A DNA stretch of 41,116 nucleotides from Negativicutes bacterium (lineage in GTDB: Bacteria; Bacillota; Negativicutes; Sporomusales; JAOACF01), in the NCBI GenBank assembly GCA_026417995.1, contig JAOACF010000004.1, positions 1 to 41,116 on the forward strand, written 5' to 3'. Below, piece by piece: positions 1-31,894 of this stretch. Position numbers and translations under genes: made by a program. Numbering within the stretch: position 1 is the stretch's first letter; each line of letters starts with the position of its first letter. The notes beneath the pieces were generated by a model, which was not told where the DNA came from, made no database searches, and saw nothing but the letters and a program-made list of their open reading frames with translations.

Positions 1-729
1 CCCGCTCCCGCCAATCCTTTTAATCTGTACCGGCGGTTGCGGCAGGTAAATCCTTCGCCATACATGTTTTATCTGAATATGGGGCGGAAAAAACTTGTTG
101 GCGCATCGCCGGAGATGCTGGTAAAGGTTGAAAACGGCATGGTGTACACCTGCCCCATTGCCGGTACGAGGCCGAGCGGCGCAAACGAAGCCGAGGATCA
201 ACGCTTGGCAGCCGAACTTTTAGCTGACGAAAAGGAGCGGGCCGAACACGCTATGCTGGTGGATCTTGGCCGCAATGATATCGGACGCATTGCAGCGCCG
301 GGGTCTGTCCGGGTTGAGCGGTTTATGCAGGTGGAAAAGTTTTCGCATGTGATGCATTTGGTCTCCCACGTGTCCGGCAAACTGGATGCGCGATATTCGG
401 CCCTTGATGCGCTTGAAGCCTGCTTTCCTGCCGGGACGGTCAGCGGCGCTCCGAAAGTGAGGGCCGCGGAAATTATTCACGAGCTCGAAGGCGGCTGTCG
501 GGGTGCCTATGCGGGAGCTGTCGGCTATCTGGATTTCCGGGGCAATCTTGATAGCTGCATTGCCATTCGCACGCTGATTATCGACGGCGAGCAGGCGGTA
601 ATCCGGGCGGGGGCGGGGATTGTCTACGATTCCGCGCCGGAGAAAGAATACCAGGAAGTGCTGCATAAGGGAAAGGCGTTGTTCAAACTGTTAGCGGAGG
701 TCGGAGAAGATGATCTTGCTTTTAGATAA
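1..729 (+). CDS. trpE: Anthranilate synthase component I, 5'-truncated by the window edge (PabB not excluded)
   Basis: Frame is open from base 1. Motifs [47 protein letters not shown] and AGAGIV are present. Confidence 0.85.
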
Positions 730-1294
730 CTATGATTCCTTCACCTACAATATTTATCAGGCAGTGACGCAGCTTGGCCATGAAGTTGAGGTGATACGCA
801 ATGACGCGGTTAGCGTGCAAAGCATTGAAGGGCAAAATTTCGACGCTATTATTCTGTCGCCCGGCCCCGGCGCTCCCAGCCAGGCCGGTATTACCAAGGA
901 ATTGATCGCACGGCTGGCCGGCAAGACGCCGATCTTGGGCGTCTGTCTGGGGCACCAGGCGATTGCCGAAGTGTTTGGCGGCCGGGTTGTGCGCGCCCCT
1001 GAGCCGGTTCATGGTAAGGCTTCGCCTGTTTATCACTGCGGTCAGGGCCTTTACGCGGGATTGCCGCAGCCGTTTAGTGCCGGGAGGTATCACTCGCTGC
1101 TGGCGGAACGGGCTGCGCTGCCTGACTGCCTGTCTGTTACCGCGGAAACGGTTGATGGTCTGATTATGGGATTAAAACACCGCACTTTGGCGGTGGAAGG
1201 CGTGCAGTTTCACCCCGAGTCAGTGCTGACGGCAGACGGTATGCAAATCTTTAAAAACTTCCTGGCACAACTTTACAAAAATAATAAAAACTAA
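710..1294 (+). CDS. trpG: Anthranilate/ADC synthase component II, glutamine amidotransferase
   Basis: [22 protein letters not shown] (catalytic Cys), RYHSL and GVQFHPES. Overlaps the end of trpE. Confidence 0.88.
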
Positions 1295-1305: not shown

Positions 1306-1335
1306 TTGACATAGTTACAATCGTAATACTATTAT
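1306..1335 (+). promoter_or_regulatory. sigmaA-type promoter for the leader-pheA-aroK transcript
   Basis: TTGACA (1306-1311), 18 bp spacer, TATTAT (1330-1335). Confidence 0.7.
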
Positions 1336-1395
1336 ATAGTAAATGGAGTGTATACATGATACCGAACCGGATAGCTGAATACGAGGGTGAAGATC

Positions 1396-1569
1396 ATGAC
1401 CGGGAATAAATTGCAAGCTGCAGAACGTTATACGAATTTCTGGTTTAGCTTTAGCCAAGGCTGTTTCTTTAGCTTTGGCTTTTTTGCGTTTACCGGAAAA
1501 AAAGAATATACGGGCAGCCTGGCAAAGAATCTCGGGAATAATCATCGCCATAGACAACGTCTGTTATAG
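1396..1569 (+). CDS. Putative Phe-rich leader peptide (pheL-like), 57 aa
   Basis: SD GAGGGTG at 1383-1389, ATG at 1396. Core FWFSFSQGCFFSFGFFAF has 9 Phe in 18 codons. Lies directly upstream of a terminator and pheA. Confidence 0.65.
   Translation: MTGNKLQAAERYTNFWFSFSQGCFFSFGFFAFTGKKEYTGSLAKNLGNNHRHRQRLL
1453..1485 (+). terminator. Terminator-like hairpin overlapping the Phe codons of the leader
   Basis: agccaaggctg / tagctttggct stem followed by a T-run. Confidence 0.5.
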
Positions 1570-1602
1570 GCGGATTGATATCACGATGAATAGGTTGAGT
1601 TA

Positions 1603-1640
1603 GGAAGAGGTTCTTGCGAGGGAACCTCTTCTTCTTATTT
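1603..1640 (+). terminator. Attenuator-type intrinsic terminator upstream of pheA
   Basis: ggaagaggttctt-GCGA-gggaacctcttct stem with a GNRA loop, then tcttattt. Confidence 0.75.
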
Positions 1641-1677
1641 ATCCGGCGGCGAACTAAACTTAAACGGAGGAATAAAG

Positions 1678-2541
1678 ATGAAGAAGCTGGGATATTTGGG
1701 GCCTATCGGATCGTTTAGCTATGAAGCGGCGTGCCGGTGGGCCAAGACCATAGGTGAAAGCGCTGAATACGTGGCCATGCCGGGATTTGCGGCGATTTTG
1801 GCAGCCGTAGAGAACGGTTCGCTTGATGCCGGCGTGCTCCCAGTGGAAAATTCGACGCATGGCGCCGTAGCTACGGCAATGGATATGCTGCTCAACCTGG
1901 AGCGGGCATCTGTTACCGGCGAGGTTGTCCTGAATATTGAGCATTGCCTTTTGAGCGCGAGCGGCGATGACTTGCGCTACGTATATTCGCATGAGCAGGC
2001 TTTGGAACAATGCCGCCGGTATTTCAACGTTTATTATCCCGGCGTTCGGCTCATCCCGTGCGCCAGCACCTCTGAGGCGTGCGACCTGGCAATCAAAGGC
2101 GGTGCGGGTTACGGCGCGGTGGCGGGCGAGGTGGCTGCCAGGCGCTATCAACTGCGGGTGGTGGCGAAGAGCATCCAGGATAATGTTTTCAATCAAACCC
2201 GCTTTTTAGTGATTGAAGAGCGGCAAATGCCGGCGACCGGGCGTGATAAGACTTCGATTGCTTTTGCCTTTCCGGGCGACCGACCAGGCAGCTTATACAA
2301 CGTTCTGAAGGTCTTTGCCGCGAAGAATATCAATTTAACGCGCATCGAATCACGTCCGGCAAAACAGTTAATGGGCAATTATATATTTTATATTGACTTT
2401 TCGGGACATCGTCAGAGCGAGGCGGGAGAAAGCGCCTTGCAAGAGATTAACAAATATACCGGCTGGCTGAAAGTGCTGGGATCATACCCGGTAGATATGA
2501 GTGAAGCTGAAACGGAGGCGGCAGGTCATGGAAAAAGATAA
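1678..2541 (+). CDS. pheA: Prephenate dehydratase with ACT domain
   Basis: YLGPxGSFS, PVENSTHG, SHEQAL.QC, N.TRF, KTS, PGSL and INLTRIESRP. Confidence 0.93.
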   Translation: MKKLGYLGPIGSFSYEAACRWAKTIGESAEYVAMPGFAAILAAVENGSLDAGVLPVENSTHGAVATAMDMLLNLERASVTGEVVLNIEHCLLSASGDDLRYVYSHEQALEQCRRYFNVYYPGVRLIPCASTSEACDLAIKGGAGYGAVAGEVAARRYQLRVVAKSIQDNVFNQTRFLVIEERQMPATGRDKTSIAFAFPGDRPGSLYNVLKVFAAKNINLTRIESRPAKQLMGNYIFYIDFSGHRQSEAGESALQEINKYTGWLKVLGSYPVDMSEAETEAAGHGKR

Positions 2542-3067
2542 AGCAGGGTCGGTATTTCCCTATAATATTGTGCTTATCGGTTTCATGGGCAGCGGCAAAA
2601 GCACGGTTGGCCGCTATTTGAGCGAAGCGGCCGGCCTGGCGTATTATAACGTGGATCAAATTATCGAACAGTATACCGGAAAAAAGATACGGGATATTTT
2701 TCTGGAAGAAGGCGAACCCTACTTTCGCGCTTGCGAAGAGGCGATTATTGCCGGCCTTGCCTACGCCCGGCGCGCCGTAATCGACTGCGGCGGCGGTGTG
2801 GTTTTGCGAAATACCAATGTTGCCTGTCTCAAGCAAAGCGGCAAACTGGTCTGGCTTACCGCCGAAGCCGGCACGGTGTACGAACGGCTGAAAGACAATA
2901 CCGACCGCCCCCTCCTAAGAGGTAAGGATATAACCGGGATACAGAAGCTTTTGAGCGAACGCATGGCATTATACCGGGAGGCTGCCGACTTGCAGGTAGC
3001 TACCGACGGTCGGGATATTCCGGTTATTGTTCAAGATATTGTCAAACAACTGTCAATCGCCCGCTAA
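2528..3067 (+). CDS. aroK: Shikimate kinase (copy 1)
   Basis: NIVLIGFMGSGKST Walker A, GEPYFR.CE, GGG and RPLL. ATG at 2528 follows SD GGAGG at 2514-2518. Confidence 0.9.
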   Translation: MEKDKAGSVFPYNIVLIGFMGSGKSTVGRYLSEAAGLAYYNVDQIIEQYTGKKIRDIFLEEGEPYFRACEEAIIAGLAYARRAVIDCGGGVVLRNTNVACLKQSGKLVWLTAEAGTVYERLKDNTDRPLLRGKDITGIQKLLSERMALYREAADLQVATDGRDIPVIVQDIVKQLSIAR

Positions 3068-3190: not shown

Positions 3191-4102
3191 CTAAGAAACA
3201 TTGGGAACTATTGCTGCGGGTGTCAGCCGGGAGGCGGTGAAATCAAGCCAACTGCGGGCGGCGAAGGATATGTACCGGTCTTTTCGCCAAATCATCGCGA
3301 GCTCCAGATAAATCTGCGGGTCTTCAATGGCAATCGGCACAATCTCCCTGGGGTCAAGCCCATCGCAGATGGCGCTGGGCAGCAGCGCAATGCCCAATTT
3401 GGCGGCCACCATCTGGGTCATAAATTCCCGCTGCGCGGTCTGGCAAATGATTTTCGGCTCAAAACCTGCTGCGCGGCACCTATCCAGAATACAGTCAAAC
3501 AGGCTGAAATCTTCACTATACATTACAAAAGATTCGTTAGCGAGCTCGGTGAAGCGGATTGTTTGCTTTTGCGCCAGCGGGTGGCCGGGATGAACAATTA
3601 CGCGCAGCGGGTCTTTGAGGAGCGGAACGACTGCGAAGATGTCCGTTTTCGCCGGCAGGGTGCAAACAATGCCGATATCCAGCGAACCTTCCTGAACTCC
3701 GGACTGAATTTTTTTGGAGCCGAATTCAAAAAGCTGGATTTGGATATTGGGAAAGCGTTGGTTGAATTCGCCCAGCATGCGCGGCAGGACAGTCGATCCT
3801 GTAATATGCGGCAGCCCGATACGTATCTTTCCTTTTTTTAAATGAACGATATCATCAAGCTCGGCGGTCAGGTTTTGAAAACGCTCGACAATTTGCTGAG
3901 CCTGCGCCAAGATAACTTTACCCGCATCGGTGAGCTCAATTTGCTTGGCATTGCGAATGATCAGCGTTGCGCCCAGCTCATCTTCCAGGCTTTGAATCAT
4001 TTTGCTGATCGAGGGCTGAGTGACATGCAAAGCCGCTGCCGCTTTGCTGAAACTTCCCTGGCGGACGACTTCCAGAAAATACTCCAGGTGGGTTATATTC
4101 AT
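3191..4102 (-). CDS. LysR-family regulator (CidR/YwbI-like), divergent from the gcl operon
   Basis: HTH SFSKAA..LHVTQPSISK.I..LE.ELG plus LTDAG. Confidence 0.92.
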   Translation of the reverse strand: MNITHLEYFLEVVRQGSFSKAAAALHVTQPSISKMIQSLEDELGATLIIRNAKQIELTDAGKVILAQAQQIVERFQNLTAELDDIVHLKKGKIRIGLPHITGSTVLPRMLGEFNQRFPNIQIQLFEFGSKKIQSGVQEGSLDIGIVCTLPAKTDIFAVVPLLKDPLRVIVHPGHPLAQKQTIRFTELANESFVMYSEDFSLFDCILDRCRAAGFEPKIICQTAQREFMTQMVAAKLGIALLPSAICDGLDPREIVPIAIEDPQIYLELAMIWRKDRYISFAARSWLDFTASRLTPAAIVPNVS

Positions 4103-11307: not shown

Positions 11308-11331
11308 TTTGTATAGTTTAAATACTGTTAC

Positions 11332-11491
11332 GGTCAAGGAGCCTCGTTATGAGGAGAATAGGGAAGTCCGAGCATGCGATGCATGCGTAGGCGCGGGCCC
11401 GCCACTGTACCGGGAAGACCTTACAAGGCCACTCGCAAGGGGAAGGCGTAATGTGTCGATGCACCGGGAGCCAGGAGACCTGCCTTAGACC
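11332..11491 (+). ncRNA. Cobalamin riboswitch
   Basis: AATAGGGAA, CCCGCCACTGTA, GCCACT..GGGAAGG and the B12-box AGCCAGGAGACCTGCC. Lies upstream of a cobT-family gene. Confidence 0.92.
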
Positions 11492-11509
11492 TTTCAATCC
11501 TTCCTGGAC

Positions 11510-30927: not shown

Positions 30928-30947
30928 TTCACTAATAAATAAATGAA

Positions 30948-31217
30948 ATACAATGACAAGGATAAGTAACTGTTCAGCTTGGTGTCAGAGAGCCGGTGGC
31001 AGGTGGAAACCGGACGATGGCGGCAGTGAAATACACCTTTGAGTAGCAGGCTGAAACCGGCGGCAGCGCCGGCAGTAGGCTGAGCCGGGCGCCGCCGTTA
31101 CAGGGATAGGATATCGGAAGAGTTATCTTCTCGTATCTGAAGTGGTAGTGATACAAATTGGGTGGTAACACGGGAGTCAAATCTCGTCCCTGCAAGAGGG
31201 GCGGGATTTTTTAATTT
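30948..31217 (+). ncRNA. T-box riboswitch, Tyr specifier
   Basis: AGTA, AGAGAG, GGTGGAA, GAAA-TAC-A specifier (31032-31034), CCGTTA, T-box GGGTGGTAACACGG, and a terminator at 31179-31213. Confidence 0.92.
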
Positions 31218-31351
31218 ATTTATAGTATTTGGAGGATGGTAGCATGGTAAAATTAACAGTGATGGCCAATCAGAAGTTTGTCCGGAAACCGATAGGGATG
31301 CCCTATTTGGCCGGAGCGCTTCAGCAACTTGCAGCAAATGAGAGGAAGGCA

Positions 31352-31894
31352 ATGAACAACATTATTCTCATCGGCTTTATGGGGACGGGTAAAACCACTA
31401 CCGGCAAGATTCTTGCCTCACGTCTCAACCGGAAATTTATTGATGTGGATGAAGAAATAGAATTGGCTTGCGGCATGAGTGTAAATGAAATTTTCAGCGT
31501 ACATGGCGAGCCTTTTTTCCGCGAACAGGAAAAGTACGCCATTGAACGGGTAATGAAGCACAGCAACGCGGTGATCGCCACCGGTGGCGGAGCGGTGCTT
31601 GCTGCTGACAATGTCGCCAATTTAAAGCGCGACAGCATGATAATTGCTTTACAAGCAGCGCCTGAGGTAATCTTGCGCCGGCTCGAGCAGTGCAACATTC
31701 CCCGGCCGCTGTTAAATAAGCCGGACAGATTGCAAGTCATTGTGAAAATGCTGGCAGACCGTGCGCCCAAATATCAGATAGCCGATCTTTATGTAGATAC
31801 CAACACGCGAACCCCCTGGGAGGTATCGCAAATTATCATTGATAACTTGCGCTTGCGGGAGAAAGCGCACCGCAAGGTGTCGGCCCATAGCTAA
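31352..31894 (+). CDS. aroK: Shikimate kinase (copy 2); alternative in-frame start at 31244
   Basis: MNNIILIGFMGTGKTT, GEPFFREQE, ATGGG and RPLL. Confidence 0.9.
   Translation: MNNIILIGFMGTGKTTTGKILASRLNRKFIDVDEEIELACGMSVNEIFSVHGEPFFREQEKYAIERVMKHSNAVIATGGGAVLAADNVANLKRDSMIIALQAAPEVILRRLEQCNIPRPLLNKPDRLQVIVKMLADRAPKYQIADLYVDTNTRTPWEVSQIIIDNLRLREKAHRKVSAHS

Follow-up and report, generated by a model that had tools for sequence, protein, structure and literature searches.

The leader of the pheA-aroK operon is most likely, with a probability that we put at roughly 0.8, a classical ribosome-stalling transcription attenuator that has been retuned to phenylalanine. The operon lies in a stretch of 41,116 nt on a contig of a Negativicutes bacterium, and this whole stretch of DNA is referred to as the window. 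Judging from its relatives, the leader is a paralogous copy of an old scaffold for aromatic leaders that is common to Negativicutes and Clostridia. The 5′ leader harbors an ORF with its own SD and start codon, a cluster of cognate codons inside this ORF, and an intrinsic terminator between the ORF and pheA. The leader codons themselves are predicted to engage in upstream pairings, the hairpin P1 and its enclosing helix P0, which would sequester the strand of a candidate antiterminator.

The 383 nt gap that follows the glutamine amidotransferase gene is the leader region of pheA, and the features of the locus are summarized in Table 1. The promoter, the SD, the 57-codon ORF with nine Phe codons and one Trp codon among 18, and the terminator before the pheA SD lie where the earlier note, which was made from the sequence alone, had placed them. 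An in-frame GTG at 1387 falls within the leader SD. The pheA product scored 269.8 bits against the NCBIfam model for prephenate dehydratase (NF008865; cut-off 219). The operon ends after aroK; the next long ORF (3191-4102) is on the opposite strand, and the N-terminus of this convergent ORF resembles, by eye, a LysR-type helix-turn-helix regulator.

Table 1. Features of the pheA-aroK locus in the window.
Feature	Position	Strand	Remarks
Chorismate-binding (anthranilate-synthase-type) gene, 3′ part	1-729		Pfam Chorismate_bind
Glutamine amidotransferase gene	710-1294		Pfam GATase
Sigma-70-type promoter	1306-1335	+	-35 TTGACA 1306-1311, 18-nt spacer, -10 TATTAT 1330-1335; 11/12
Leader SD and start codon	1383-1398	+	SD GAGGGTG 1383-1389, 6 nt 5′ of ATG 1396
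Leader ORF	1396-1569	+	57 codons, stop TAG 1567-1569
P0 5′ strand (first codons of the leader ORF)	1396-1422	+	predicted pairing with 1513-1540
P1 hairpin inside the Phe block	1437-1499	+	apical 1453-1462/1471-1480; basal 1437-1444/1492-1499
Regulatory codon block FWFSFSQGCFFSFGFFAF	1438-1491	+	9 Phe, 1 Trp, 0 Tyr
P0 3′ strand	1513-1540	+	includes candidate antiterminator 5′ strand GGCAAAGAAUCUCG (1521-1534)
Intrinsic terminator	1602-1642	+	stem 1602-1633, then U-rich tail
Candidate antiterminator 3′ strand	1606-1618	+	distal half of terminator 5′ arm plus loop
pheA SD and start codon	1667-1671; 1678		SD GGAGG, ATG
pheA, prephenate dehydratase with ACT domain	1678-2541	+	Pfam PDT 9.4e-54, ACT 6e-08
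aroK, shikimate kinase	2501-3067	+	overlaps the end of pheA; Pfam SKI 2.9e-42

The block comprises 18 codons, and its Phe codons are seven TTT and two TTC. A point against a tuning to Phe alone is that the leader ORF still has a Trp codon within the block and, at positions 12 and 38, Tyr codons. Among the 775 stop-to-stop ORFs of at least 30 codons in the whole window, only one reaches nine Phe in 18 residues, and this is the leader ORF. None of 5000 shuffles of the region 1295-1677 attained this density, the maximum being seven.

In a DNA-level search of 41 related genomes, five, which represent four other families of the order, contain a sequence 77-81% identical to the Phe block. The matches to block and terminator in these five have E <= 1.7e-7, and in four of them the terminator is also matched, about 125 nt 3′ of the block. 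A second match was found in the window's own genome on contig C183. This paralogous leader (G000:C183:11280-11500, minus strand; locus L031, 2768-2989, minus strand) encodes VSFSFFSQGYYYSVGYFAM from a GTG start and shares its terminator type with the window leader. It is located upstream of aroF (DAHP_synth_1 plus a ferredoxin-like domain), which is followed by an ORF that is probably aroB. Neither the paralogous leader nor the hairpin inside the Phe block had been mentioned in the earlier note.

A search with the single leader peptide as query found no relatives, and we built a covariance model, R1, on the block. With R1, the element was located within the order in 13 of 40 genomes and 8 of 16 genera, and within the class in 30 of the 151 genomes sampled and 16 of 67 genera. 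Of the 15 loci obtained when species-representative genomes were scanned with a pattern, 13 were judged true; the records are Sporomusa rhizae, Anaerospora hongkongensis, Lucifera butyrica, Pelosinus sp., a Sporomusaceae MAG, a Veillonellaceae MAG, and several Clostridiaceae and Oscillospiraceae MAGs. At least 119 stretches matched in metagenomes, and about half of the 80 metagenome loci examined are true members, the rest being low-complexity Phe/Ser repeats. L165 was rejected as such a repeat, L062 and L065 were rejected because they lie inside a long ORF, probably for a membrane protein, and L040 and L043 were judged to be false matches; L069 and L085 are degenerate or unclear and were left out of the counts. 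The earlier note had contrasted the leader with the T-boxes typical of Firmicutes. Given the class-wide counts and the Clostridia-type MAGs, such leaders are not exotic in Firmicutes.

The homologous leaders share the scaffold (F/Y/W)xFSF..G(Y/F)(Y/F)(F/Y)SxG(Y/F)F. The loci from the DNA search also have a recurring design, in which a promoter, an SD and a start codon are followed by 13-14 unrelated codons, the block (e.g., FWFSFYYQGYYFSVGYFAF), further codons, a stop codon and a terminator. Wherever it could be read, the first downstream gene is aroF, aroA, aroE, aroK, tyrA or pheA; Pfam checks identified aroF as a DAHP synthase with a ferredoxin-like domain and also recovered aroE and aroA. 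The length of the leader ORF ranges roughly from 28 to 58 codons, so that 57 codons are normal for the family and not unusually long as had been claimed.

A promoter scan of the window leader on its own gave two sites against 2.4 expected in shuffled sequences, which is not above chance. Support for the promoter comes from the relatives, as identical -35 and -10 boxes precede all six homologous leaders that were read. In addition, a TTTACA/GTTACA motif occurs about 30-45 nt 5′ of the -35 box in all seven leaders read (the window, L002-L006 and L031), and TTACA occurs inside the promoter spacer in six of the seven; in the window these motifs are at 1271-1279 and 1314-1320, respectively. They may constitute a binding site for a transcription factor that acts on top of the attenuator.

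The SD and start codon are at a constant distance from the block in nine of nine leaders examined. By eye, 13-14 codons precede the block in all eight Negativicutes copies inspected, and these codons show no sequence conservation. Within the block, the aligned copies have a single indel, which is 3 nt long. A single frame is open in every copy, since the conserved UUUAGC repeats place TAG in another frame. The conserved frame, the SD and the 3 nt indel together argue that the leader ORF is translated. The earlier note had proposed examining whether the ORF and its Phe block are conserved in relatives; they are in frame wherever the element is present, with exchanges between TTT and TTC and between TAT and TAC. 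Its interpretation of translation-coupled attenuation by Phe is likewise supported by 68 distinct aromatic blocks, all of them in frame and always located before genes of the aromatic pathway.

The conservation of the frame also bears on another alternative, namely that between trpG and pheA a chance ORF happens to lie beside a terminator, or a barrier to read-through, of the ordinary sort and senses nothing. This would accord with a promoter match at chance level, but the Phe density missed by every shuffle and the in-frame conservation across a bacterial class effectively refute it, and we regard it as hardly credible.

Within the block, the aromatic columns and the other columns behave differently. 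The aromatic columns swap among TAT, TTT, TAC, TGG and TTC; one example column contains 36 TAT, 20 TTT, eight TAC, two TGG and three singletons. The non-aromatic codons are nearly frozen, with 171 of 194 Ser codons being AGC. The frozen AGC and GGY codons are located in the stems of P1, which accounts for their conservation. Thus, both a coding and a structural constraint act on the block, as expected for an attenuator. Outside the block, neither the sequence nor the length of the N- and C-terminal parts of the peptide is conserved.

The leader RNA (1342-1680) folds with -102.1 kcal/mol (z = -4.6), and none of 100 shuffles was as stable. Besides the terminator before pheA, the terminator scan flagged a hairpin with a U-run within the Phe block (1453-1480). 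This hairpin is part of P1, and the U-rich run that follows P1 is a possible pause signal. In an alignment of 14 sequences, 77.1% of the P1 positions can pair, against 34.6-54.3% when the partner strands are slid, and none of 500 shuffles reached this value. The apical helix is 87.9% paired, and four of its pairs have changed on both sides, indicating covariation. The block alignment contains 23 invariant columns.

In the minimum-energy folds of nine leaders, the opening codons of the ORF are repeatedly found paired with a stretch 3′ of P1. In the window, the region from the start codon to about 1540 is thereby predicted to form a single long rod that has the aromatic block at its tip. The paired sequences of this enclosing helix, P0, vary between lineages, and their complementarity is still enriched over shuffled sequences (mean z -1.61; 16 of 38 copies below -2 and 8 of 38 below -3). 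The P0 of the window has -22.1 kcal/mol (z -2.3), and 5 of 200 shuffles were equally good.

The strong nucleotide conservation of the block, including its synonymous sites as seen in the invariant columns and in the Ser codons, could also mean that the leader is a protein- or ligand-binding RNA switch, in which P1 with its three UUUAGC repeats is bound and the ORF is a by-product of a U-rich sequence. The covariation of P1 and the weak evidence for the antiterminator that a ribosome model requires (see below) would fit this explanation. We nevertheless consider it very unlikely. A single frame is open in every copy, with an SD and a start codon at a fixed distance; the variable positions are exactly the aromatic codons, which vary among F, Y and W, and their make-up follows the downstream gene; and the location of the AGC and GGY codons in stems already explains their conservation. 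Furthermore, when the region 1250-1720 was compared with all 4227 Rfam families at E <= 10, only three chance-level matches were obtained (rli61, ceN102 and Arrc11). The T-box families were not among them, in agreement with the earlier statement that the leader has no T-box. TRAP-like binding to the UAG repeats was also rejected, since there are only three repeats at irregular spacing.

It is also very unlikely that the conserved peptide itself matters, either as a small hydrophobic protein or as a nascent arrest peptide that senses its ligand in the ribosome tunnel. TnaC is an example of such sensing. The motif FSF..G(Y/F)(Y/F)FS.G(Y/F)F, including its Ser and Gly residues, is common to Negativicutes and the Clostridia-type MAGs, and the length of the block would suffice for a membrane helix. 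However, the parts of the peptide on either side of the block vary in sequence and length, the peptide always adjoins a terminator and aromatic-pathway genes, its Ser and Gly codons are accounted for by RNA pairing, and it matches no Pfam or NCBIfam family. Arrest by a free amino acid would, moreover, regulate a biosynthetic operon in the wrong direction, barring a different wiring. Stem pairing explains the conservation at synonymous sites and yet leaves room for a protein-binding or peptide-level role.

The codon composition of the block provides the strongest computational argument for the codons as the sensor in the attenuator. We compared the 68 distinct blocks, from which L069, L085, L165, repeat ORFs and duplicates had been dropped. 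The block of the window is the only one without Tyr (9 F, 0 Y, 1 W), and it precedes pheA-aroK only. Three columns of the family are preferentially Tyr, and there the window carries TGT, TTC and TTT. Conversely, the only block without Phe is that of L063 (ALYYGQGYYYSVGYLAW; 0 F, 6 Y, 1 W), which precedes tyrA (PDH_N/PDH_C). All other blocks mix Phe (2-9) and Tyr (1-7) and precede common-pathway genes or whole aromatic operons. For instance, mixed leaders head the pheA-first operon pheA-aroF-tyrA-...-aroA (L128) and the tyrA-first operon tyrA-aroA-...-pheA-aroK (L170), and the aroF leader copy in the window's own genome has four to five Phe and four Tyr. The codons thus appear to track the product of the downstream genes, a pattern drawn from a single pheA-only case and a single tyrA case among genomes that are related and not independent.

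In several relatives pheA is located behind aroF under a mixed leader (e.g., L070, PDT), and in two relatives aroF is the gene behind the leader that comes after trpE-trpG. Apparently, the lineage of the window acquired a copy of the scaffold in front of pheA-aroK, and this copy was then retuned to Phe. By the replacement of the Tyr codons, from TAT to TGT, TTC and TTT, the window leader would report Phe alone. The tyrA gene of the window genome begins 87 nt from a contig end (L214, 1-90, G000:C155), so that the region where a Tyr-only leader like that of L063 would be expected is cut off. Elsewhere in the family, a Trp-enriched leader (L068, G002:C109:48994-49072; WFYFFSWGYFFSAGYFAW), with three Trp codons, precedes another DAHP synthase gene in a genome, G002, that also carries an aroE leader; this enrichment hints at isozyme-specific tuning.

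The stem of the terminator (1602-1633) consists of 14 pairs with a loop of 4 nt, has about -19 kcal/mol, and is followed by CTTATTTAT. Of 38 Negativicutes copies, 31 have a terminator by the criteria used and seven have none. The candidate antiterminator of the window pairs 1521-1534 with 1606-1618 at -14.3 kcal/mol and a z of only -1.6. Across the copies, the duplex energies compared with shuffles gave a mean z of -1.06, with only 5 of 31 below -2, and in an ungapped scan of registers the second-best ones scored almost as well. The candidate sits within the ORF, 3-44 nt before the stop codon in most copies. In the window, 32 nt separate the end of its 5′ strand from the leader stop, and a ribosome parked at the stop codon would therefore not cover it.

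Two observations are consistent with the antiterminator pairing. In G002, GAAAUCUC with GAGGUUUC replaces AGAAUCUC with GAGGUUCU, a compensatory swap. The same topology also occurs in both subtypes of the terminator, as AGAAUCUC with GAGGUUCU in one and as AUGAG..CUUAU with AUAAG.CUCAU in the other. P0 shares at least 4 nt with the antiterminator strand in 24 of 31 copies, but both strands come from the same 50-70 nt, so that this count lacks a proper null and is only weakly controlled.

Equilibrium folding with ribosome footprints yielded no switch, and the terminator was the minimum-energy fold in every state. Likewise, the pairing of the terminator 5′ arm in truncated transcripts hardly differed between the free, stalled and at-stop states. 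Only the window model in which the ribosome is stalled and the start region is also occupied showed the antiterminator. Equilibrium folding does not discriminate between these states because attenuation is kinetic. Overall, the antiterminator pairing is only weakly supported.

In four relatives (G038, G074, G129 and G054), the leader stop is part of a conserved hairpin, UUGAUAUAA...UUUAUAUUAA, that stands between ORF and terminator (1572-1582 in the window; about columns 163-205 of alignment A4). The window retains GGATTGATATC of this hairpin, but its leader ORF stops earlier, and the C-terminal part of the leader would therefore have been remodelled.

From this arrangement we infer how the ribosome would stall, how the antiterminator would pair and in which direction the operon would be regulated. 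Transcription would start just 3′ of 1335, and the 57-codon leader would be translated from the ATG at 1396. When no ribosome is stalled, the rod would form, with 1396-1422 paired to 1513-1540 in P0 and the Phe block folded as P1 (1437-1499). The rod would sequester 1521-1534, the terminator would fold, and transcription would stop before pheA. A ribosome that runs through the leader would unwind the rod and pass over 1521-1534, and the terminator would form again. When Phe-tRNA is scarce, the ribosome would stall on the nine Phe codons (1438-1491) and melt P1 and the rod. The freed 1521-1534 would then pair with the 5′ arm and loop of the terminator (1606-1618), no terminator would form, and pheA-aroK would be transcribed. 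This is the classical logic of mutually exclusive structures, in which the rod (1:2), the antiterminator (2:3) or the terminator (3:4) is formed.

As the earlier note had reported, a T-box is also present in the window. It is located at 30944-31194 (109.6 bits), before a second shikimate kinase gene (31229-31894; SKI 3.5e-42). The register of the Rfam alignment (GAA-A-UAC-A-CC) points to UAC (Tyr) as its probable specifier, in which case the Phe leader would control one shikimate kinase and a Tyr T-box the other. The window also contains a cobalamin riboswitch aptamer at 11320-11501 (72.6 bits).

A broader proposal, which we hold only tentatively and think rather doubtful as a whole, would extend the retuned attenuator to an ancient modular aromatic gauge. 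It would consist of the block around P1 and the enclosing helix, with its specificity reset by single-base codon swaps, from Tyr TAT to Phe TTT or Cys TGT in the window and from Phe to Tyr or Leu before tyrA in L063. Together, the Phe leader and the probable Tyr T-box on the second shikimate kinase gene would let each end product control its own isozyme. P1 with its U-tract may serve as a checkpoint for the coupling of translation, acting as a pause or an early terminator; alternatively, the nascent peptide itself may slow the ribosome. If either were true, the sensor would be more than a codon counter.

Textbooks tie leader-peptide attenuation to Proteobacteria. The distribution of the present family suggests that in Negativicutes and their Clostridia-type relatives the shikimate pathway is regulated largely by leader-peptide attenuation, beside T-boxes in the same genome. 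Because the family is absent from Rfam, Pfam and NCBIfam, these leaders and their small ORFs go unannotated, a gap that covariance models of the R1 kind could fill. Nature has in effect set up an experiment on specificity in this genome, where paralogous leaders have a shared scaffold and different aromatic codons; exchanging a few bases between the pheA type and the aroF type would test directly how the codons set the amino acid that is sensed. The retuning of codons within one genome, together with the probable Tyr T-box on the second shikimate kinase gene, makes a neat and testable case.

The proposed mechanism is of a known kind, and the family was found neither in the three databases nor in the literature searched. 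No description of it in Negativicutes or Clostridia was found there, and comparative papers of 2003-2004 on aromatic regulation and attenuators could mention it. Among other Gram-positive bacteria, Corynebacterium glutamicum, of a different phylum, reportedly has a leader peptide with aromatic codons before its DAHP synthase gene aroF.

The motif uORFC-13-1, located upstream of aroF, is described from 24 representatives in Acholeplasma and environmental sequences only, with 'at least one' Phe codon, and its authors read it as ribosome-mediated attenuation (Brewer et al., 2021; PMC8632094). It shares with the window leader a uORF with Phe codons, another base-paired element, a terminator, a shikimate-pathway gene and a Firmicutes-related lineage (PMC8632094). 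By this description, uORFC-13-1 may or may not belong to the same family. Leader attenuators with His codons are reported from the Bacillus cereus group, Peptostreptococcaceae and Erysipelotrichales (PMC9413887). They likewise represent classical leader-peptide attenuation in Firmicutes alongside T-boxes, but concern another amino acid and other operons, and share no sequence with the window leader.

The functionally closest system is pheL-pheA of Escherichia coli, which is similar to the window element neither in sequence nor by the Rfam model. The two have in common a short Phe-rich ORF before pheA and an intrinsic terminator, and the alternative pairings that a stalling ribosome reads out in pheL-pheA are proposed for the window as well. 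The Rfam entry for this leader is Phe_leader (RF01859), and pheL comprises 15 codons, compared with 57 in the window leader. In contrast to pheL, the regulatory codons of the window leader are located in a conserved hairpin enclosed by a long-range helix, and its ORF continues through the candidate antiterminator strand. Moreover, the window element comes from a family that appears mostly to sense Phe and Tyr (and Trp) together.
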